Shown here one piece after another: positions 4,760 to 62,885 of a stretch of 64,000 bases of DNA. The notes under the pieces were generated by a model, which made no database searches, had not been told where the DNA came from, and saw only the letters and a list, made by a program, of their open reading frames with translations. This DNA comes from Asterias rubens (Eukaryota), in NCBI RefSeq assembly GCF_902459465.1, contig NC_047064.1, positions 10,618,160-10,682,159 on the forward strand, in the 5' to 3' direction. Numbering within the stretch: position 1 is the first letter of the stretch; the number at the start of each line of letters is the position of its first letter. Made by a program: the position numbers and the translations under genes.

Positions 4760-5080
4760 CCTAAAGCCATTAGACACTGTCGGTAAACAGATTGTCCAAA
4801 GGCCCACACTCTATGTATCACATGACAACTTATATAAAATAACAAACCTGTGAAAATTAAGGCTCAATCGGTCATCAGAGTCGGGAGAAAATAACGGGAA
4901 AACCCACCCTTGTTTCCGCACGTTTCGCCGCGTCATGACATGTGTTTAAAATAAATCCGTAATTCTCGATATCGAGGATTGATAATTGTTTTAATGTTTT
5001 CACAAAAAGTAAAGCATTTCATGCATCTGTGAACCCTTTTTTGTCTGTTCCGAAAGTGTCCAATCGCTTTAAAATGTACA
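4760..5080 (+). mobile_element. MITE-D (~320-380 bp) with ~30-bp terminal inverted repeats TTAAAGCCATTGGACACTTTCGGTAAACAG.
   Basis: This is a near-identical copy of 44906-45280. The terminus ...ccgaaagtgtccaatcgctttaaa is the reverse complement of the 5' end. Confidence 0.8.
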
Positions 5081-5857: not shown

Positions 5858-6000
5858 GCCGGGCAACCTCGGTAGTCTAGTTGGTAAGACACTGCTCTAG
5901 AATTGCAACGGTCGTGGGTTCGAATCCCACCCGAGTAACATGCCTGTGATATTTTTTCACAGGACTCGGGAAGTACTGAGTATACAGTGCTAACACACAT
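5858..6000 (+). mobile_element. tRNA-derived SINE-A (tRNA-like head with A and B boxes, plus body).
   Basis: The head ggtagtctagttggtaagacactgctctagaattgcaacggtcgtgggttcgaatcccacccga carries A-box TAGTCTAGTTGG and B-box GGTTCGAATCC. The body ...gtaacatgcctgtgatattttttcacaggactcgggaagtactgagtatacagtgctaacacacatc is shared with the copies at 13117-13262 and 40668-40832. A tail-derived hairpin lies at 5728-5812. Confidence 0.75.
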
Positions 6001-11320: not shown

Positions 11321-12349
11321 TAAGAAACCGGAATTTTGATGCCTCTATGCAATAATATTTGCATGTTGATAAAAACCTGAAATGAAGTCAAATAATTAAC
11401 TGTCAGTTTTGAAACTTTTTCCGTAAATAGTATAATTATAACTTGTTCTTATAGAGCGTTAAACAACAATGTGCTTTACATTGGTGCCCTGGTCATTGGT
11501 CAAATAAAAACATCCCTTTCACATTTCTCAGCTCCTTTGGGAGTATACAGCCTGAGCTGCCGTGGCACTCCAAAGGCGTATTTTAAACACATTATCAACC
11601 CCTATCATTGCAGGCACCCATTTATACCCCTGGGTGATTAGAAGCAATTGTTGTATTCCCAAAACACAAGTGTCATGACCGGGTTTCATAGTCTTTGAAG
11701 AAGCAGTAAAACTTGATTGAATTATACAATGAGGGGGTCAGGTTGCCAGTGGTTTCTTTCCTCGCTTTCTACCTGTAGGACCCCGGTTCGAATCCTGCTG
11801 GAGTAATTCCTCAGGGTTGTTAATGTATTCTCTTTATGGGGTTCATGGCTTGTACAGTGATTGAAGGGAAGGTACACGTTTGGTAATTATTGAAAACAAA
11901 TATTAACTTAAAAACTGACTTGGTAATGAGCATTGGGGAGCTGTTGATAGTATAAAACATTGTGGGAAACGACTCCCTCTGAACTAACAGATTTTGAGAG
12001 AGAGGTAATTTCTCACTTAAATAATAAAAGACTTCTAGCTAGAAGTCTTTTATTCCTATCTGAAAGCACATGTATTCGTCCATCAAGGGTGTTTTCTCTT
12101 TCATCATTTTCTCGCAACTCCGATGACCGATTGAGCTCAAATTTTCACAGGTTTGTTATTTTATGCTTATGATGGGATACACCAAGTGAGAACACTGGTC
12201 TTTGACAATTACCAAATGTGTACAGTGCCTTTAAGTTCTCTTTTCTGAGAATCTTTGGATTCACCACCAGAATTAATAATTACAAAAAGTGAAAAATTAT
12301 AGAATTAGAAATGATCACTCTCACTATGAATCTACACTTGTTCTTCCAG

Positions 12350-13726: not shown

Positions 13727-13984
<258 letters not shown>

Positions 13985-15282: not shown

Positions 15283-15935
<653 letters not shown>

Positions 15936-18827: not shown

Positions 18828-19349
18828 GTACAGAGCATGAAATTGTGAAAAGCGTCTGCGAAATTATCTAGTTCCTTACTTTAGGGGACTTTTTTTGACT
18901 GCGCTCTTTTTAACCATTGATTCAGCGTACTCACAAAAAGAACTCAAGGCTGAACACAAACGCCATTGGCTACTTTGGTCTATGTTCACCTTCGATTCAC
19001 AATGGGTAGTTTCATCTTGGTTTGAGTTTAACCTACTCGGAGAAATACTACATACATAGTGAGGCAGCCATCGTTGTTGTGTGCATTCAACTGGAGTGAT
19101 TAAAGACAGTGGACACTATTTGTAATTGTCAAAGACCAGTCTTCTCACTTGGTGTATCCCAACATATACATAAAATTACAAACCTGTGAAAATTTGAGCT
19201 CAATTGGTCGTTGAAGATGCGAGATAATAATGAGAGAAAAGACACCCTTGTCACATGAGGTTGTGTGCGTTTAGATGGTTGATTTTGAGACCTCAACAGA
19301 TTGAAACATTTACATACTAACTAAAATATAATTTGTTTCTCCTTTTTAG

Positions 19350-30390: not shown

Positions 30391-30770
30391 GGCAGTGGAC
30401 ACTATTGGTAATTACTCAAAATAATTATCAGCTTAAAACCTCACTTGGTAACGAGTAATGGGGAGAGGTTGATAGTATAAAACATTGTGAGAAACGGCTC
30501 CCTCTGAAGTGACGTACAGTTTTGAGAAAGAAGTAATTTTCCACGAATTTGATTTTGAGACCTCAAGTTTAGAACTCTTGAAATCAACCATCTAAACGCA
30601 CACAAGTTCGTATGACAAGGTTGTTTTTCTTTCATTGTTATCTCGCAAGTACGACGACCAATTGATCTCAAATTTTCACAGGTTTGTTACTTCATGCATA
30701 TGTTGAGATACACCAAGTGAGAACACTGGTCTTTGACAATTACCAATAGTGTCCACTGTCTTTAAGGTGA
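30391..30770 (-). mobile_element. MITE-C copy.
   Basis: Reverse orientation. Supplied ORFs 30441-30671 and 30676-30933 (-) lie inside it, so they are spurious. Confidence 0.8.
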
Positions 30771-38560: not shown

Positions 38561-39644
38561 GACGGACGAGATGTCTGACATCAGTCTGTGGCCAGATAGT
38601 ATGCTACTGTATGCTACCTCCTCCAGTGTTGGACTTACAACTTCTACAAAAGTCAAGTGTTGAGTGTTGAACTGGATTGGTTGACAGCTGGAGGTTGTAC
38701 CCATACTTTTGCAATTCGGAGGAGAAAACTGTGTCATGGCCGAGCGGTTTTTAAAGAGCATTGAACTGAAGCTCTGCTGTATCTGATCACCATAATGTGG
38801 GTTCAATTCCCGGTCGTTAAACTTCAAATTTTCATTTATTTTTAGCAAGGACACTCCGTTGCTTTGTCCTTCAGAAGGGACGTAAATGTATAGGTCCTTA
38901 AATTGTGTTGTAAATCAACGCACGTAAAAGACACTTATCGGAAAGAGAAGGAGTACGCCCCGGTGTGTCTGGCAGGGGGACTATTTGCAATCATGAAGGC
39001 TGCACAAGAATTAGAAAGAAAAAAAGATAGAAAGAGGGTTATGCATGGTACAGGAGGAAGATGGTGGGCTAGGTTGGCTCAGTCAGTGGTTGCTGTCCCT
39101 GTCTTTCACCTCTTTGGATGCCTGGTTTGATACCAAGACCGGAGCCTTACATTGCGTTTTTCAGTCCCGTCCTAACTGTGTGGCTTTTCCCTATTGACTA
39201 ACTCAACCGATCCAAGGCAATGTGTTCCTTTTAAGTATGATGCTTATACACAAATGTAACATATATTGTGTAGATCTTTTGCTGGTAATTTTTACTTTTA
39301 AGACTGTTTGAAATGGCGCGCCAGAGTCGCGCCGAACCAAATAGAATAGTACCGATTCTAAAGTCCACCCAAACAATTTTGGGTTTTTGACAGGCGAACT
39401 TAACAAAATATTTACATAAAGGTTTGGCTCATGACAAGATCGATGTCTGAAACCATGCAAGGTTCTCGTCTCTAGAGTCATTCTGAATGACTGCAACAGT
39501 CAATCTTTCGACTTCTAGCGCATCCCGTCATTCCTATCTGTTTTAGACAATAAACTTTTCAAGTTTGAATTCAGAATATGGTTTTTGCGCGACTGTAACT
39601 TATTCCCGAATTATTACTATTATTTTATATTTTCTACTCTGAAG

Positions 39645-39826
39645 GTCGTGAGAGATTCTGTAGTCTAACGAGAGTGTATTTCAAGGAAGCATCTGCGTGT
39701 GTTATCATGTTTGATGTCACGTCTATCAAGTCATTTCAGCATGTAGTCACTTGGAAGAATTTGGTAGATTCTACAGTCTCCCTACGAGATAGGAGTCCAA
39801 TACCTTTTCTGTTACTCGGTAATAAG
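39645..39826 (+). CDS. Rab29/Rab32/Rab38-subfamily small GTPase, internal exon. Encodes (G)RERFCSLTRVYFKEASACVIMFDVTSIKSFQHVVTWKNLVDSTVSLRDRSPIPFLLLGNK.
   Basis: Matches human RAB29 QERFTSMTRLYYRDASACVIMFDVTNATTFSNSQRWKQDLDSKLTLPNGEPVPCLLLANK, which covers the G3 tail and the NKxD G4 box. Donor AAG|gtatgt is clear. The acceptor is assigned to ctctgaag|GT, and the exact 5' boundary is uncertain. Confidence 0.75.
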
Positions 39827-40667
39827 GTATGTTTGAAATAACCCTCTTTTTTTTCTCTTTGTTTTAATGTTTTTATAAGAGATCGCGTAACATAACAAGG
39901 CCATAAACGGCCACTTCACATAGGAGCCATATATAGACTGATCCGGGCTGTTAACCAAAATCAACTCTCAACTGTCACTAGTGGCATATTGCCGCCTATT
40001 CCTGGGGCTGAAACAGGGTAAACCCTATAGACTTGATGACAAGTCGTTAGGCGCTGCCTATTTGTTACAAACACACATTCTGCCCTTCATGCAACAGTTC
40101 CGTTCGATTATACATTCATGCCACCGTCACGCACACATACTGGGATCGAGGATGTGTGTACCGTCCCTGGATGTAAACTACACTGCGCTTCACAATTACT
40201 GTCTTGACTTTAAGTAGTACTGGGTATTATCCACTAGGACATGTAAGAGCCTGTCTGGTAGAGCATAATGCAACCTTCCCAACTTTTTGCAAAGTTATTT
40301 TGGTTATAGTGCCTTGCTCAAGGGCACAAGTGCCATGACCAGGATTCGAACCCACACCCTGCTACTGACAGCGTCAGAGCTTGCCAGGGGACCTACACCG
40401 CTTGGATGGGCATGACAAGTCGCATCATTTGTTCTTTAAAATGTGAGACATTGTGGTTGATTTATTTTATTTTCTTTTTCAAATCTTAATTTTGTTCTTT
40501 CATTTTTTTTTCTTGGAACTTCGATGACCAATTGATCCCATTTTTCACAGGTTTCTTATTTTATGCATTTGTTGGGATGCACCCAGTGAGAAAAGTGGTT
40601 TTTGACAATATTGTTACCAAAAGTATACCCGGCCTGCCTTTAGGATATTGATTTAGTCTAATGATAT

Positions 40668-42989: not shown

Positions 42990-43680
42990 AACAGTGACCT
43001 TGAGTAGGGGCCCATAGCACAAGCTAGCTCACTACCAGCTCTGCATGTCTAAGACAGTGACCTGCTTATCTCAGTCTTCTTGCCCTAATCCTGGTGCCAA
43101 CTCTCGGTAGGCCACCATAGAGTTCCAGGTTTGTGACATGCCTCTCCCAATGAATCTGTTTAACACAACGAAGCATTCTTGTATAGCAGCGATCCAGTCT
43201 CTTCTCTAGACGACTGGCCAGTGTCCAGGACTCACATCCGTACGGCAGTACTGATTCCACAGTGGCAGTAAAGAACTTCACCTTCAGGGACTGGGACATC
43301 TGACTTAACCATAATGTTCTTCATGGAGTCGAGTTCCTTTTAGGCAAGAGTGATACGACATTTCACATCTTTCTCGGTGTCATTAACCCACGAGCCCAAG
43401 TATTTGAAATCTGTTACCGAGTTCAGCTCAGAACTGATGGTTGTCTTTTAGGGAGTGGCAGTGGTCTGTTAAATATCATGTACTTTGTCTTCCTGGTGTT
43501 GAGAAATAGCCCCACTCTGGCACATTCGGTCTCTGTTCTTTGCAGAATCAGCTGAGCTTGCTCAATCTCATCAGATATCAGAACGATGTCATCTGCAAAA
43601 TCAAGGTCTGTGATCATGACAGGAGCCACTCGTCTGCTCCTCCTATCAACTGTTCCTCCACTTCTTCCTGGCAAGGATAA
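42990..43680 (-). mobile_element. Degenerate non-LTR retrotransposon reverse-transcriptase fragment.
   Basis: Minus ORF 43423-43674 translates to ...MITDLDFADDIVLISDEIEQAQ...TETECARVGLFLNTRKTKYM (the FADD RT motif). Minus ORF 43066-43299 translates to ...FFTATVESVLPYGCESWTL...LDRCYTRMLRCVKQIHWERHVTN.EL (RT thumb/C-terminal region). The frames are shifted relative to each other, so this is a decayed copy. Confidence 0.8.
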
Positions 43681-44905
43681 TTGTCAAAGACCAGTCTTCT
43701 CAATTGGTGTATCTTTCCGATGCTTGATTCCGAGGTCTCGAAATCAAATTCGTGGAAAATTACTTCTTTCTCAAAAACTATATGTTACTTCAGAGGGAAT
43801 CTTTTCTCACATTTTTGTAGTCTATCAAGTAAGGTTTTATGCTAAAAAAAAATTGATGGGAGACTTTTGGGCGGTCCTTTTTAATAGTTCTCGCCAGTAC
43901 GGGTACAACAGTGAGCATCTGTGTGCACACTTATAGACATTAAAAAGGACAGTTATGTCTGCAGCTGCCAACGTCTCAAAAGTTTCGCATTATTTGTACA
44001 TACAACGTTGTGTGTAACTTGTAAAAATTTAATTTAAACAATACCGCCTTACTTTTGTTTACATAGAGTGACCCTGAGAATTTCAGGCACAACATTTGGA
44101 AATTATTGAATTTGTACCATTTCCCAAAAGCAAAAATGTGATGAAAATCATTCAGAGATGGAAATCATCTTTACTTGTATAATGGTACATGTTCATGTTT
44201 TGTTCTGTCGAGCTGTAAACAATTTGTGATACAGAAAGTTTAGGCTCTGTGTCTCTTAAATCCGCATCTTCAATACTCCACTGATTTATTTTGTCTTCTT
44301 CTGTTTTAGAGAAGAACCTTTATATGAGCTGAAAGCCTGGTTCATACTTCCTGCGAATGCGAAGCGAAGTTCCAATGAATTTGACGTCACAACTCTGTTT
44401 ATGCTGCAAACATTCGCAAGAGTCAAGCACAGCTCAACTCTGCGAATAATTCGTTGCAAATTTCTGATGTCAACATTCGCATTCGCATAAAGTATGAACC
44501 AGAAAACTGTATTAAAGCAGTTCTTTAAAATAAATTAGGTAAATCCATATAGATGCTACTCTCTGACATTTCCATTTATACTGATAAATATAATAAACAA
44601 TATTGGTAACTAAATCTAACAATGCATATAAACATATAATTGTATAGGAAAACCCCACTCTATGAATGTAGGAGTAACTAAGGCAGCTTTTAAAAAACAG
44701 TATAAAAACTTATTTTAGTTTGATTTTGAAAGGAGCTGCCCTTACACAGTCCGCTCTATATAAAGTTTTATCAATAAGTATCGATATAGAACAATAGTAT
44801 TGATGTAAAATTTAAAATTATTTCTTCAATAATCTTGTATAAAATGGTATTGCTGTTGAAATAATGCCACTGATTCACTAAATATCAGTTATTTGGTTTG
44901 ACCTT

Positions 44906-45280
44906 TTAAAGCCATTGGACACTTTCGGTAAACAGTATTTTCCAAAGGCCCACACTTCGTGTATCACATCTTATATATAAAATAACAAACCTGTGAAAAT
45001 TTAGGCTCAATCGGAGTGGGGAGAAAATAACGGGAAAACCCACCCTTGTTTATGCACGTTTCGCCGTGTCATGTCATGTGTTTAAAATAAATCTGTAATT
45101 TTCGATATCGAGAATTGATAATTGTTGTAATGTTTTCTTAAAAAGTAAAGCAGTTCATGGAATGATATTTCAAGAGAAGTCTCTCACCATTACCTTCTGT
45201 AAACCCTGTAGGTTATTTGTAAATCTTTGAACTTTTTTTTTTCTGTTCCGAAAGTGTCCAATGGCTTTAACTTGTGCATA
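44906..45280 (+). mobile_element. MITE-D copy.
   Basis: Runs from ttaaagccattggacactttcggtaaacag to ccgaaagtgtccaatggctttaa. It lies between the Rab-like and PCTP genes. Confidence 0.8.
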
Positions 45281-50800: not shown

Positions 50801-52854
50801 GAAGACTCGGTTTGCTCCTTATAAAAACAGACCCTGGTCTATGGTAAAAGGAAGCTGTACAACGCTTTAAGGAGGTACGCTTAATATAAGAAAAATTGCA
50901 TTCCTGTGTCACTCCCAAAAAGTATTAGAAAACAACGCAAGTATTTTTTTTTCTTGAAAGACTTTTTTCTTGTTTCAAGGATACAATGCAGTGTAAAATG
51001 AACCGGTTTTGTGTTCAGTAACTGCAAATTCAAATGTTTCCAAGTGATAAACTAAGGGAAACTGACTGGGTTACATGTATATGATGTTGGGTTGAACAAA
51101 GAAGAAATTACTAATGTTCAGTCTTTTCTGTTCAGTTCTAATCTTGTTTTCATGGGGTGATATTGCTAAACTCTTATCATTAGCTGGAGAGCTTTAATCC
51201 GATTATTGAATTCTTTGGACAGATAAAGGTAAAGCCAATTATCTCACATGAGTTATAAAGCTAAAGAAAGGCCACACAGAAAGGCAAAGTTATGATTTAA
51301 GTTTAAAAGTAACTCATGTCGCTTTTTAGTTTTCTTCATATCCTCTTCTAATATCAAATTCTGAACTTTGTTGGATAACTTTTGTGTTTATTTATTGTAA
51401 CAAAAGCTCATAACAAAGGCAGGGCAGTTTGGCATTTTGTTGAAAATCATTTGATCATTTAAGTATTTTATCTGTGTTATTGATCATTACATGTATGTCA
51501 TTGTATAAATATGTATATTAGGCATTAGGTGCAGTTAAAAGTCTATTCAGTTTGGGGCAATAGGTATTATGTGTAACCCCAGATCTTAAAAGTTGAGATA
51601 TAATCATTTAAAACTTGTAAGAAACCATCCAGCAGGACCTGTCTTTGCTCTGATATGCACTATTTCTGTGAAATCAGTTTTTGTGATAATATGCACTATT
51701 TCTGTGAAGTGCATCTTTTGTCTTAATTTAAACAATAAAACTATGCTTTGAATGTTGGAAAGAAACAAATTGCAAAACCTCAGCCAAATCATCTGATTGT
51801 TGCTCATAGATGTACGTGCATGCACGTCACAAGCACATAATATTTTAGGCTTTTTCAAAGGTGTGTACACAAACATGGGAGTGCACACAAATGCAGCTCA
51901 CAGTACATGCTCTACTCAGTACACGTGTACACGTACATGTAGATCTATGGGTTCAACACGTACTGTACAACTACAATACTACTGGTATTACTATAATTGT
52001 TATTATTATGATTCTTAAATGACATAAATGGTAATTAAAAACTGCTGAGTAAGACTACAGTTTACAATGTTAATGAAATACTAAGGGAAAAAAACACTGA
52101 CAATACAATAATGGAGAGGGGGGCTTGTGCCAGTCACCCCCCCCCAGCCCTGATCCCCAATTTGGACCCAGACCTTTGAGATTCAACACTACCTATGATA
52201 AGCTTTCATGTGGTATTAAAACTGTTTTTCTATTTACACACTGACAATGTAATTTGAGATTAAAAAATTTGAGGACGACCAAAAGTAAAAAGGTACATTT
52301 AATAAGCTTTTTGACAATACTAATTAAACTCTGCGTTTAATTGTTGAAAACTATTTTCTATACTACGCAAAACAAAAATCCAGTTGTTCGTCCCCACTCC
52401 CCTCCATCATCCTTTGTTTGAGGGCGCCGCCCCCTTTTTTTCTTTTTCTTTTTTGAACAAATTTTCGGTGTACATTATTTCTCATTTAACTAACTAATCT
52501 TTGAAGAACTTGTAAACTACATAAGGTAGGTGGTGACTTTAAACTGAAGAATTTGTGGCCAGTTTGAAATAAAATGCTTGGTGACCACCTTAAGAAATAC
52601 AAAATAAAAAGACCCTCATCCCTTTTGGAAAAACCTGGACGATCACTGGTATACTTCTTGGCCTTCATACACACTAATGTAATTTGATGTTACCTCCACC
52701 TCAAACTTGCTTTCAAGAATTAAGAAATGGCATAACAAGAGCGCTGAAAAGGAGCACACGGGTCATTGCGTAGATTGTAGGAGTGAGGTTAAGAAAAATT
52801 AGCCAAGAGAGCCCCTCTATACAAAATGAAGTAATCATATTGTGCCTAATTTGT

Positions 52855-54420
52855 TTAAAGCCATTGGACACTTTCGGTAAACAGTGTTGTCCAAAGGCCC
52901 ACTCTTCATGTATCACAACTTGTATAGGGTACGTTCAGACGTGGGGTTAAACTAGTCCTTAATCCGAGCACCGCGGGTGTCCAAAAGATAAACATGACTT
53001 AGTCCAAAATTGGCTTGCGTTCACACAGTGAGTTTATTCTGGTCAAGCGGACTAAACTAGCCCACGATGTTGATTATTGGGTCATGCATCGGCGAACCTT
53101 ACCATTGCTGGTTCCGGTTTGTTACATTGTCCATGCGTTTTCCACAGGGTTTCGATCCGCTATCGTTTCTACGAACCTCATGGTCATCATGTATTCCATC
53201 ATTAAAGACGGCAAAATCACTTCATATCCTTGCTTGGCCCCAGCACAAACGCAATTCTATTGTGCCCGCTGAAGTTTCCGTTCCGCACTGCCCTCGATGA
53301 ACGAAACATTTACACGTTGTTGTTGAAAGCTTCAAATTATTTTCGAGTGTGAACTTTTGTAAATATATCACAACTTGGTCATTAAGAAGTCGTAGCCTAC
53401 ACACATTCTCATGTTACGTTAAAAATTGTTTTTCAATTCAACATTAGTCTGCTACTCGTATAACTGTTACGTAAAGTTGTTGAGGGCAGGAACCAGATAC
53501 AACCTAGTTTTCGAACCCAAACTTTGGTCTTAATTGTCGATCCCGTGTGTAGCTTAGCTGTGATTAGATGCCACTTTCTTCAAAGCAAAACCCGTTCGTT
53601 ATCATAAAGTAGCGTTGCACACAGAAGAAGTGAATTTAAAAACTAAATAGTGCTACTAAAAATGAGAACTTGTTTTCGTGCGACGTCCATTTCAAACATT
53701 TTCGGCGAAGGGGAATACCGGGGCCCCAACACTTAATGGTAACATAAAGGGAAGGCAGCGGAGAGACGCAAGGAGATATTATATAGCTCCATGGATTCAT
53801 GAAGACACCACCCAATACTCGCTGCCGATCCATCCATACACGTGGAATGACGTCACCTTTGTTGCCGCGGTCATTTGGGCTAAAATAGACCGGAAGTAGC
53901 AGGTCAGTTGCGTTCCAACGATGGTTTACTGGGCCTCGCAGCGGGGGGTTGGTCGTAAAACCTGGGCTAAGTTTATTGTCTAGTCCACCAATTTTTTTGG
54001 TTTAGTTTAGCCCAGCTCAGTGGGTCAAATTAACCCTCGCGGACCAGAATATTGCGTTCACACGCAGGGTTAGTTTAGCACTTTTGGATTAAGGACTAGT
54101 TTAACCCCACGTCTGAACGTACCCATATAAAATAACAAACCTGTGAAAATTTAGGCTCATTCGGTCATCGGAGTCGGGAGAAAATAACGGGAAAACCCAA
54201 CCTTGTTTCCGCACGTTTCGCCGTGTCATGACATGTGTTTAAAATAAATCCTTAATTCTCGATAACGAGAATTGATAATTGTTTTAGTGTTTTCTCAAAA
54301 AGTAAAGCATTTCATTGAATAATATTTCAAGAGAAGTCTTTCACCATTACCTTCTGTAAACCCTGTAAGTTATTTGTAAATCTGTGAACTTTAATTTTTT
54401 TCTTTCTAGTCAGAAAGTGT
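52855..54420 (+). mobile_element. MITE-D copy interrupted by the nested insertion above.
   Basis: The 5' part at 52855-52920 and the 3' part at 54121-54420 are collinear with the intact copies at 4760-5080 and 44906-45280. Confidence 0.8.
52921..54120. mobile_element. Non-autonomous TIR DNA transposon (~1.2 kb) nested inside a MITE-D copy.
   Basis: The ends are ~45-50-bp terminal inverted repeats: gggtacgttcagacgtggggttaaactagtccttaatcc... at 52921 and its reverse complement ending at 54120. Long subterminal inverted repeats share the core gcgttcacac. The host MITE continues on both sides, and compared with uninterrupted copies the join carries 3 extra bases (tat/ata), implying a 3-bp TSD. 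Confidence 0.75.
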
Positions 54421-54524
54421 ATAATGGCCTTTTTTTTGCCATTGAGTTGAGGGCCTTCATGTGAGGCCAGGTTGGGGTCTTTTTAAAGTTACCCTCTGTA
54501 AGATGTTTTGGGGGCTAGAAAAAT

Positions 54525-54860
54525 ACAAAGTGATTGGAGCGGGACTAGAACCTGCGACCTCCGGATTATTGTGCCCGCGCTTTACTAACTGAGCTATTCG
54601 GTGCTTATGTTGGCGGTGTCCCTTTTTTGTCAAATTCTTTGTTCAGGGGTGCCACTCAGATGCAATACAACCTGTAACTGCTGTAAAGCCACAGATCACA
54701 CTCCCAAGTTGATTTCAAATATTAAGTACAAAAAACACAAGGGACACCAACTTGGTAAATTCTTAAGTTAATTTTTGGTTGGAAAAAGAAAAATTTACTA
54801 GAGCGGGACTTGTGCCGACGCTTTAACAACTGAGCTTTTAAGTCCTATAAATGTTCGTGT
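54525..54860 (-). pseudogene. Two tRNA-like remnants within a ~270-bp tandemly duplicated unit.
   Basis: The first (54531-54610 on the minus strand) reads gcaccgaatagctcagttagtaaagcgcgggcacaataatccggaggtcgcaggttctagtcccgctcc. Its A-box TAGCTCAGTTAGT and B-box GGTTCTAGTCC are intact, but the acceptor stem does not pair. A degenerate second copy lies at 54790-54855. Confidence 0.45.
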
Positions 54861-56503: not shown

Positions 56504-56884
56504 AGTTGAAGGCAGTGGACACTATTGGTAATTACTCAAAATAACTATTAGCATAAAACCTTTATTGATTACGAGTAATCGGGAGAGGTTGATGGTATAA
56601 AACATTGTGAGAAACGGCTCCCTCAGTAGTTTTTGAGAAAGAAGCAATTTTCCACGAATTTGATTTTGAGACCTCAAGTTTAGAATTTGAGGTCTCGAAA
56701 TCAAGCAGTTGAAAGCACACAACTTCGTGTGACAAGGGTGGTTCTTCTTTCATTGTTATCTCGCGAGTTCGATGACCGATTAACCTCAAATTTTCACAGG
56801 TTTGTTATTTTATGCATATGTTGAGATACACCAACTGTGAAGGCTAGTCTTTGACAAGTACCAATATTGTCCACTGCCTTTAAA
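56504..56884 (-). mobile_element. MITE-C copy.
   Basis: Lies in PCTP intron 1. Confidence 0.8.
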
Positions 56885-57689: not shown

Positions 57690-58790
57690 AAGGAACACGT
57701 TGCCTTGAATCGCCTTGGATCGGACGAGTTGGTCTATAAAAAGCGTTTGAAACCGTTTGTTATGAAATGCATGGTTAGAAAGATATTTTAAAAGTATAAT
57801 GATCCACACAAGTACCACTCAAAATTGCACGGTTTTCTTTTTACGTCGCGAACTAAGCACAACTACTCCATTGGTGACAGTATAATCCAGACAGTAAGTG
57901 AAGAAAGAGATCTTGGGGTAATCATCCATCAGTCACTAAATGCAAGTACCCACTGTGCGAAGGCAGTCAAAAGCGCATTCAGAGCCCTGGGGCTAATCAA
58001 CAGAACCATTACGAACAAAGACAAAACAACAATCATCAGACTGTACAAAGAACTGGTTAGACCACACCTAGATTACTGTGTTCAGGCGTGGAGGCCTCAT
58101 CTTCAAAGGGACATTGACCAAATAGAAAGAGTGCAAAAGAGAGCGTTGCGAATGATTGGAGGTCTATCTCACCTAGACTACGTTCACAGACTCAGGGAAG
58201 TGAAATTGACCACCCTGGAGTGCAGGAGGCTGCGAGGAGATCTTATCGAGACCTTTAAGATACTCAGGGGCCTTGAGGGCTTGAACCCGGAACACTTCTT
58301 TGATTTGTCAACCGTGCAGCACAGGGGTCACCAACTTAAACTGTACAAATCAAGATCCAACCTCAACCTCAGGAAGTTCTGGTTTACCCAGAGAGTGGTC
58401 AACTACTGGAACATTCTCCCTCGAAAAGCAATTGAAGCTTCAAGTGTGAACATTTTCAAGGGACATGTGGATAAATTCCTAAAGAACGTCGGGGGGCTCT
58501 ACATAAGCTTATCTAAGCTGTCTGCCCCAGTAACCAGAACCACCGTCTCCTCCCCAGTTGTGTGATGGCGTCGGTGGGTTCAAGTAAGTTCAAGTAAGAC
58601 CGTGTTAGTCGACGAGGTAAAAAGAAAACCACGCAATTTCGAGGCATATTTTTGTGTGGATCATTGTATTCTACTTTTACAACATCTTTCTAACCATATG
58701 CATTTTATAACAAACGGTTACAAAACGCTTTTCAAAGACCAACTCGACCGATCCAAGGCAACGTGTTCCTTTAACAGCTCAACACAGAAG
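57690..58790. mobile_element. Composite element in which MITE-F arms flank the CR1 ORF2 3' fragment.
   Basis: The left arm at 57690-57840 and the right arm at 58600-58790 are inverted copies of each other and of the 26126-26512 arms. The 759 bp between them (57841-58599) is the CR1 RT tail. Confidence 0.8.
57841..58599 (+). mobile_element. CR1/L2-like LINE, 3' end of ORF2 (RT C-terminal domain) plus a short 3' tail with (ttcaagtaag)x2.
   Basis: Supplied ORF 57825-58565 translates to ...LDYCVQAWRPHLQRDIDQIERVQKRALRMI...TLECRRLRGDLIETFKIL...HRGHQLKLYKSR...RKFWFTQRVVNYWNILP...FKGHVDKFL. This is the classic CR1-clade ORF2 C-terminus (RRLRGDLI, FFTQRVV..WN.LP). Confidence 0.85.
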
Positions 58791-62512: not shown

Positions 62513-62885
62513 AGCCATTGGACCCTTTCGGTTCAGAAAAAAAAAAGTTCACAGATTTACAAATAACTTACAGGGTTTACAGAAGGCAATGGTGAAAGAC
62601 TTCTCTTGAAATATTATTCCATGAAATGCTTTACTTTTTGAGAAAACAGCAAAACAATATAAATTCTCGTTAACGAGAATTACGGATTTATTTTAAACAC
62701 ATGCTATGACACGGCGAAACGCGCGGAAACAAGGGTTGGTTTTTCCGTTGTTTTCTCCCGACTCCGATGACCGATTGAGCCTAAATTTTCACAGGTTTGT
62801 TATTTGATATAGAAGTTGTGGTACACAAAGTGTGGGCCTTGGACAACACTGTTTACCGAAAGTGTCCAATGGCTTTAAATGATTA
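62513..62885 (-). mobile_element. MITE-D copy.
   Basis: Runs from ctttaaagccattggaccctttcggttcag to ccgaaagtgtccaatggctttaaa. It directly abuts a MITE-C copy at 62163-62512. Confidence 0.75.

Follow-up and report, generated by a model that had tools for sequence, protein, structure and literature searches.

In a 64,000-nucleotide stretch of Asterias rubens DNA (the window, as the whole analysed stretch is called here), one copy of a MITE is interrupted by 1.2 kb of sequence that the intact copies lack. This locus raises the question of what the interrupting segment is, how it came to lie inside another repeat and to which group of transposons it belongs. The segment is a nested, non-autonomous transposon with terminal inverted repeats (TIRs; class II, cut-and-paste) and a 3-bp target-site duplication (TSD), and we put the probability of this reading at roughly 0.85.

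The host MITE and the three extra bases at the join

The host is a TTAA-flanked MITE of ~375 bp, which spans 52859-54429 once it is split by the element. Its subfamily has four copies within the window, and the intact ones are located at 44905-45270 (+), 62880-62509 (-) and 4762-5075 (+). The copies at 44905 and 62880 carry the 19-bp TIR AGCCATTGGACACTTTCGG with TTAA on both sides. The host has the features of MITEs that insert at TTAA, the target type of piggyBac/Kolobok: short TIRs, TTAA duplications, a small size and many copies. The split copy and the duplication made within it consist of the following parts:

52855-52858, unstranded: left TTAA target-site duplication of the host MITE (intact copies read TTAA-AGCC...GGCT-TTAA)
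52859-52926, plus strand: 5' part of the host MITE with its TIR AGCCATTGGACACTTTCGG, 92% identical to the copy at 62880 (minus strand) over positions 2-73 of the latter
52924-52926, unstranded: left ATA of the 3-bp duplication, made by the inserted element
54125-54127, unstranded: right ATA of the 3-bp duplication, made by the inserted element
54125-54429, plus strand: 3' part of the host MITE, with a degenerate right TIR (CAGAAAGTGTATAATGGCC) and its TTAA mutated to TTTT

A 22-mer from the MITE core has matches on 62 JGI metagenome contigs (names beginning with JACSE, as well as Ga0115547/48/56 and Ga0209309), some of which are 93-99% identical to the window copies. The host is also one member of a large set of MITE-like repeats with a common internal core (...AAATAACAAACCTGTGAAAATT...) and at least three different 5' ends (AAGCCATTGGACACTTTCGG..., AAGACACTGGACAC..TTGGTAATTGTCAAAGACCAG... 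and ACAGGATTGGTAGAGCTGAC...). About 15 weaker matches to this set are present in the window, e.g., at 12107-12234, 56756-56884, 30638-30765 and 19100-19227, and the set is also represented at loci L002-L063.

The initial annotation had described the insertion of a TIR element within a MITE and three extra bases at the join, and both observations were confirmed. In a BLAST comparison with the intact copy at 62880, its first 130 nt (62880-62751, minus strand) align in two blocks: positions 2-73 correspond to 52854-52926 and positions 71-130 to 54125-54184. Both flanks therefore align to one intact copy with a 3-nt overlap, and the alignment identifies them as the two halves of one MITE. Seven intact copies, three from the window and four from the metagenome loci L005 (two copies), L023 and L036, were further compared with the split copy in a MAFFT alignment from which the element had been removed; compared with six of these, the split copy is longer by exactly 3 nt at the join, and the remaining one, located at 4762, is locally rearranged there.

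The paralogous intact copies provide the empty site against which the TSD can be read. An empty site at this locus would read ...CTTGTATATAAAATAAC, and the site before insertion was ...ACAACTTGT-ATA-TAAAATAAC. The duplicated bases are ATA/ATA, and this direct repeat cannot be extended to either side, as T at position 52923 faces C at 54124 and G at 52927 faces T at 54128. The junctions are found at 52926/52927 and 54124/54125 and not at 52920/54121, where they had been placed before, and the duplication, previously called TWA-type, is of a different sequence, TWA being TAA or TTA. Insertions of hAT, MULE, P, Merlin, Transib, piggyBac/Kolobok and Sola/Ginger elements are accompanied by TSDs of more than 3 bp; since the empty-site test fixes the duplication at no more than 3 bp, all of these superfamilies are excluded.

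Termini, interior and coding capacity of the element

The element, its terminal repeats and the short motifs found near its ends by a k-mer census are located as follows:

52927-54124, unstranded: inserted TIR element of 1198 bp, non-autonomous, GC content 44.2%, CpG observed/expected 1.04
52927-52965, plus strand: left TIR, 39 bp, 100% complementary to 54086-54124
54086-54124, minus strand: right TIR, 39 bp, pairing with the left arm
52948-52954, plus strand: TAAACTA within the left TIR (element position 22)
53053-53059, plus strand: subterminal TAAACTA copy (element position 127), oriented as the copy in the left TIR
54003-54009, minus strand: subterminal TAGTTTA (element position 1077), oriented as the copy in the right TIR
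54071-54077, minus strand: subterminal TAGTTTA (element position 1145), oriented as the copy in the right TIR
54097-54103, minus strand: TAGTTTA within the right TIR (element position 1171)

The TIR reads GGGTACGTTCAGACGTGGGGTTAAACTAGTCCTTAATCC and was measured at 39 bp, shorter than the ~45-50 bp first claimed, with 39 of 39 positions complementary between the arms. It occurs just twice in the window, even if up to three mismatches are allowed, and 0 chance matches are expected from dinucleotide-preserving shuffles. The termini of the element are GGGTACG... and ...CGTACCC, and the combination of GGG...CCC with ATA/ATA is fully symmetric. The start of the element, GGGTACGTTCAG, appears similar to the GGG/GGC-NNN-GTT type of terminus found in PIF/Tourist elements. 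In its composition, the element stands out from its surroundings: the GC content of 44.2% compares with 37.6% in the remaining window (~38% for the window overall), and the CpG observed/expected ratio of 1.04 compares with a window mean of 0.63, i.e., the element lacks CpG depletion.

The TAAACTA motif is found on the plus strand at element positions 22 and 127 and on the minus strand at positions 1077, 1145 and 1171, a layout in which the two ends mirror each other. The census also revealed TTGCGTTC at element positions 89, 982 and 1126, with all three copies in direct orientation. The long subterminal inverted repeats that had been attributed to the element could not be recovered. When element positions 40-300 were aligned locally to the reverse complement of the opposite end, the best inverted alignment past the TIR was a 10-mer, and its score was matched in 49 of 300 shuffles. 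A match of 15 nt that links the host flank (52908-52922) to the interior of the element (53363-53377) was judged to be a chance match, because local alignments between the element and the MITE score at the level of shuffled sequences. Promoter-site-like motifs, namely TGACGTCA (CRE-like) and CCGGAAGT (ETS-like), are located in the interior of the element at 53820-53900, and a TATATAG lies ~60 bp upstream of them; they may be remnants of the promoter of a parent element or just the product of chance.

The longest open reading frame (ORF) of the element has 85 aa, and no Pfam match of the five longest ORFs is credible, even at E ≤ 10. A six-frame translation of the element gave no match at E ≤ 0.01 among 5.8 billion predicted proteins, and Rfam reported no family in or around the element, the one match, IS009, being at chance level. 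As there is no ORF of more than 85 aa and no Pfam or Rfam match, the element is non-autonomous, in agreement with the initial annotation. The search for a transposase or Myb-like ORF was extended to the whole window and found none in the element and none among 113 stop-to-stop ORFs of at least 75 aa, in which Pfam recognized only Ras, RVT_1 and FAD_binding_4.

Several other features of the window were recorded. Exons resembling those of AGPS/ADAS (alkylglycerone-phosphate synthase) are located at 13727-13984 (+) and 15283-15705 (+); one of them has a FAD_binding_4 match, the other is 70-75% identical to bird and nematode ADAS fragments, and the collection of 5.8 billion proteins contains no protein identical to the AGPS-like exon. 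A Ras-family (Rab-like) exon is found at 39599-39838 (+; Pfam Ras, E = 8.9e-09), and a short RVT_1 fragment at 43426-43683 (-) is probably a decayed LINE. A 246-aa ORF at 57792-58562 (+) corresponds to the C-terminal portion of a reverse transcriptase of LINE type and has a close counterpart on a marine plankton metagenome contig (ENA; SOLA22-1_SAMEA7060535; locus L001), with 99% identity at the protein level and 98.6% over 877 nt; this points to a probable marine animal source, the DNA of which occurs in plankton samples from the coast. Rfam (48.4 bits) and ARAGORN agree on a tRNA-Ser(AGA) gene at 5866-5939 (+), which looks intact. A tRNA-like stretch on the minus strand (~54530-54600; GCACCGAATAGCTCAGTTAGT...GGTTCTAGTCCCGCTCC) follows closely downstream of the host MITE and may be a SINE head derived from a tRNA; no tRNA is called at this position by ARAGORN or, even at E ≤ 1, by Rfam.

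Further copies of the element were searched for inside and outside the window. The other 62.8 kb of the window hold no second copy, as judged by a search for the TIR at up to three mismatches and by BLAST with the whole element, and 137 kb of metagenome contigs carrying the same MITE family gave only chance-level 11-mer matches in BLAST and fuzzy searches. A 20-mer of the TIR has 0 matches in the JGI metagenomes, and an 18-mer has 0 matches in IMG/VR. A text search of the literature with the TIR and MITE sequences returned only unrelated oligonucleotides.

Superfamily assignment and rival explanations

In Repbase, non-autonomous elements are placed by the length of their TSD and by agreement at terminal positions 1-11 (PMC4455052). 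The PIF/Harbinger-like elements sensu lato (PHIS) consist of six groups, which are told apart by their TSDs: TWA in PIF/Harbinger, AT in the context A-AT-T in ISL2EU, none in Spy, ANT in Pangu, CWG in NuwaI and TNA in the context C-TNA-G in NuwaII (PMC4482050). A preference for AT-rich targets is common to the PHIS groups, and most PHIS elements have 3-bp TSDs (PMC4482050). The length of the TSD, the AT-rich target and the 39-bp TIR starting with GG make PHIS the best guess for the element described here, although this assignment is tentative and is given somewhat less than an even chance. The sequence ATA itself falls into none of these six classes (TWA, AT, none, ANT, CWG and TNA); it is one base off ANT and one base off TWA/TNA.

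Two of the PHIS groups come closest. PIF/Harbinger TIRs start with A or G and in most cases do not reach 60 bp (PMC4482050), which agrees with the 39-bp, GGG-starting TIR of the element; in PIF/Harbinger sensu stricto the TSD likewise has the length of 3 bp found here, but not the sequence. The element thus resembles non-autonomous, Tourist-like members of PIF/Harbinger in its 3-bp duplication, its AT-rich target, its GG-starting TIR of less than 60 bp, its lack of coding sequence and the short motifs at its ends, and it differs from them in that the duplication is ATA instead of TWA and that no partner encoding a DDE transposase of the DDE_Tnp_4/Plant_tran type and a Myb/SANT/MADF protein was found in the element or among the window ORFs of at least 75 aa. 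Pangu elements have TIRs of 11-40 bp that start with AG or GG, and they occur in marine invertebrates, namely an oyster, a hydrozoan and an anthozoan (PMC4482050). By this published description, the TIR length, the GG start and the 3-bp TSD are all shared with the element, whereas ATA deviates from the Pangu TSD, ANT, at the third base.

A different superfamily that makes 3-bp duplications (Zator, Academ or another one) could also have supplied the transposase that mobilized the element. This alternative is unlikely, but it has several points in its favor, as the 3-bp length of the TSD is observed directly and ATA falls outside every PHIS class. Moreover, non-autonomous copies of Zator-1 are active in a marine invertebrate, the amphioxus, and have TIRs of 33 bp, near the 39 bp found here (PMC12905397). 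By description, long perfect TIRs and a 3-bp TSD are thus common to Zator-1 and the element. However, the TSDs of Zator-1 are TAA/TTA and not ATA, and its copies were called palindromic (PMC12905397), whereas the element has no significant inverted similarity past its 39-bp TIRs. In addition, no transposase was found in the element or among the window ORFs of at least 75 aa.

The true duplication might comprise 2 bp instead of 3 bp, in which case the element would be 1199 bp long with one unpaired terminal A. Because the target is a TATATA run, this is formally possible: the sequence can be divided as TA-GGG...CCCA-TA, with a TA duplication as in Tc1/mariner and pogo, or as AT-AGGG...CCC-AT, and AT duplications are made by ISL2EU (PMC4482050). 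Both divisions demand asymmetric ends, whereas GGG...CCC with ATA/ATA is wholly symmetric. If the ends are kept symmetric, AT stands at the right flank, and a TA duplication requires the extra terminal A, which speaks against Tc1/mariner and pogo; the AT reading needs an asymmetric extra A as well, and the A-AT-T context of ISL2EU is absent, since T and A flank the site in place of A and T. A 2-bp duplication is therefore considered quite improbable. A long shot, rated slightly lower still, is that the element represents a group of TIR elements, PHIS-like or unclassified, of which no copy had been sampled before and whose transposase would make 3-bp duplications at the non-palindromic sequence ATA, outside the six PHIS classes. 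The gradings in this section are rough estimates, and the remaining probability falls to an element that is unclassifiable or new.

It is very improbable that no transposition took place and that the locus arose by rearrangement or mis-assembly, which would have left a segment flanked by inverted duplications inside the MITE. A single copy is known from the window, the 137 kb of related contigs, the JGI metagenomes and IMG/VR, a point in favor of such an origin. On the other hand, the interruption of the host is precise, a direct duplication of exactly 3 nt abuts perfect 39-bp inverted termini, and rearrangements seldom leave both a direct duplication and abutting inverted termini. Hardly credible at all is a non-autonomous CACTA/EnSpm (CMC) element, which would be in line with a 3-bp TSD free of sequence constraint and with subterminal repeats: a conserved CAC(T/A) terminus defines the CACTA superfamily, and the termini GGGTACG.../...CGTACCC, which are not CACTA/CACTG, therefore exclude it. 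The initial annotation had named PIF/Harbinger or CACTA; the former is supported by the 3-bp length, the GG-starting TIR and the AT-rich target, but not by ATA in place of TWA, and the latter had to be given up.

Proposed mechanism, age and meaning of the insertion

Perfect TIRs that abut a short direct duplication, within a repeat that can be precisely restored, are the standard footprint of a DDE transposase and its staggered cut. The target of the later-arriving, non-autonomous cut-and-paste element was a pre-existing TTAA-type MITE. In the mechanism proposed, the 39-bp TIRs would be recognized by a transposase of the DDE type whose gene lies at another place in the genome; as the element encodes nothing, the enzyme must come in trans. 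This transposase may also read the mirrored TAAACTA-type motifs, which are found within ~135 bp of the left end and ~120 bp of the right. The element would have been excised from its donor site by the transposase, and its 3' ends would then have been joined to the target at ...ACAACTTGT-ATA-TAAAATAAC with a stagger of 3 nt. Repair of the gaps would finally have generated the ATA/ATA duplication.

The host MITE copy must have been in place before the element inserted; its identity is 85-90% with the other copies in the window and 93-94% with the nearest ones from the metagenomes. The TIR arms differ at 0 of 39 positions, which corresponds to an arm-to-arm divergence of less than ~7.7% at 95% confidence (exp(-39d) = 0.05). 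If the element had aged like a MITE copy that is ~5% off its consensus, ~3.9 mismatches would be expected in the TIRs, and the probability of observing 0 would be ~0.02; the insertion is thus probably younger than typical MITE copies. The CpG ratio of 1.04 versus 0.63 and the absence of TIR mismatches are both consistent with an insertion that is younger than the MITE. The locus had been proposed as a marker of recent activity, and it does serve to order the insertion relative to the host MITE; it points only weakly to recent activity, as the 0/39 mismatches do no more than bound the divergence at less than ~7.7%.

The nested insertion is of an ordinary kind and has little significance past annotation. 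It provides a clean order of two transpositions, that of the TTAA-type MITE and the later one of the 1.2-kb element, and its well-defined pair of termini could seed a genome-wide hunt for other members of the family, the autonomous partner included. The known target range of transposases that produce 3-bp TSDs would be modestly widened if many copies were to share ATA-like, non-palindromic duplications.
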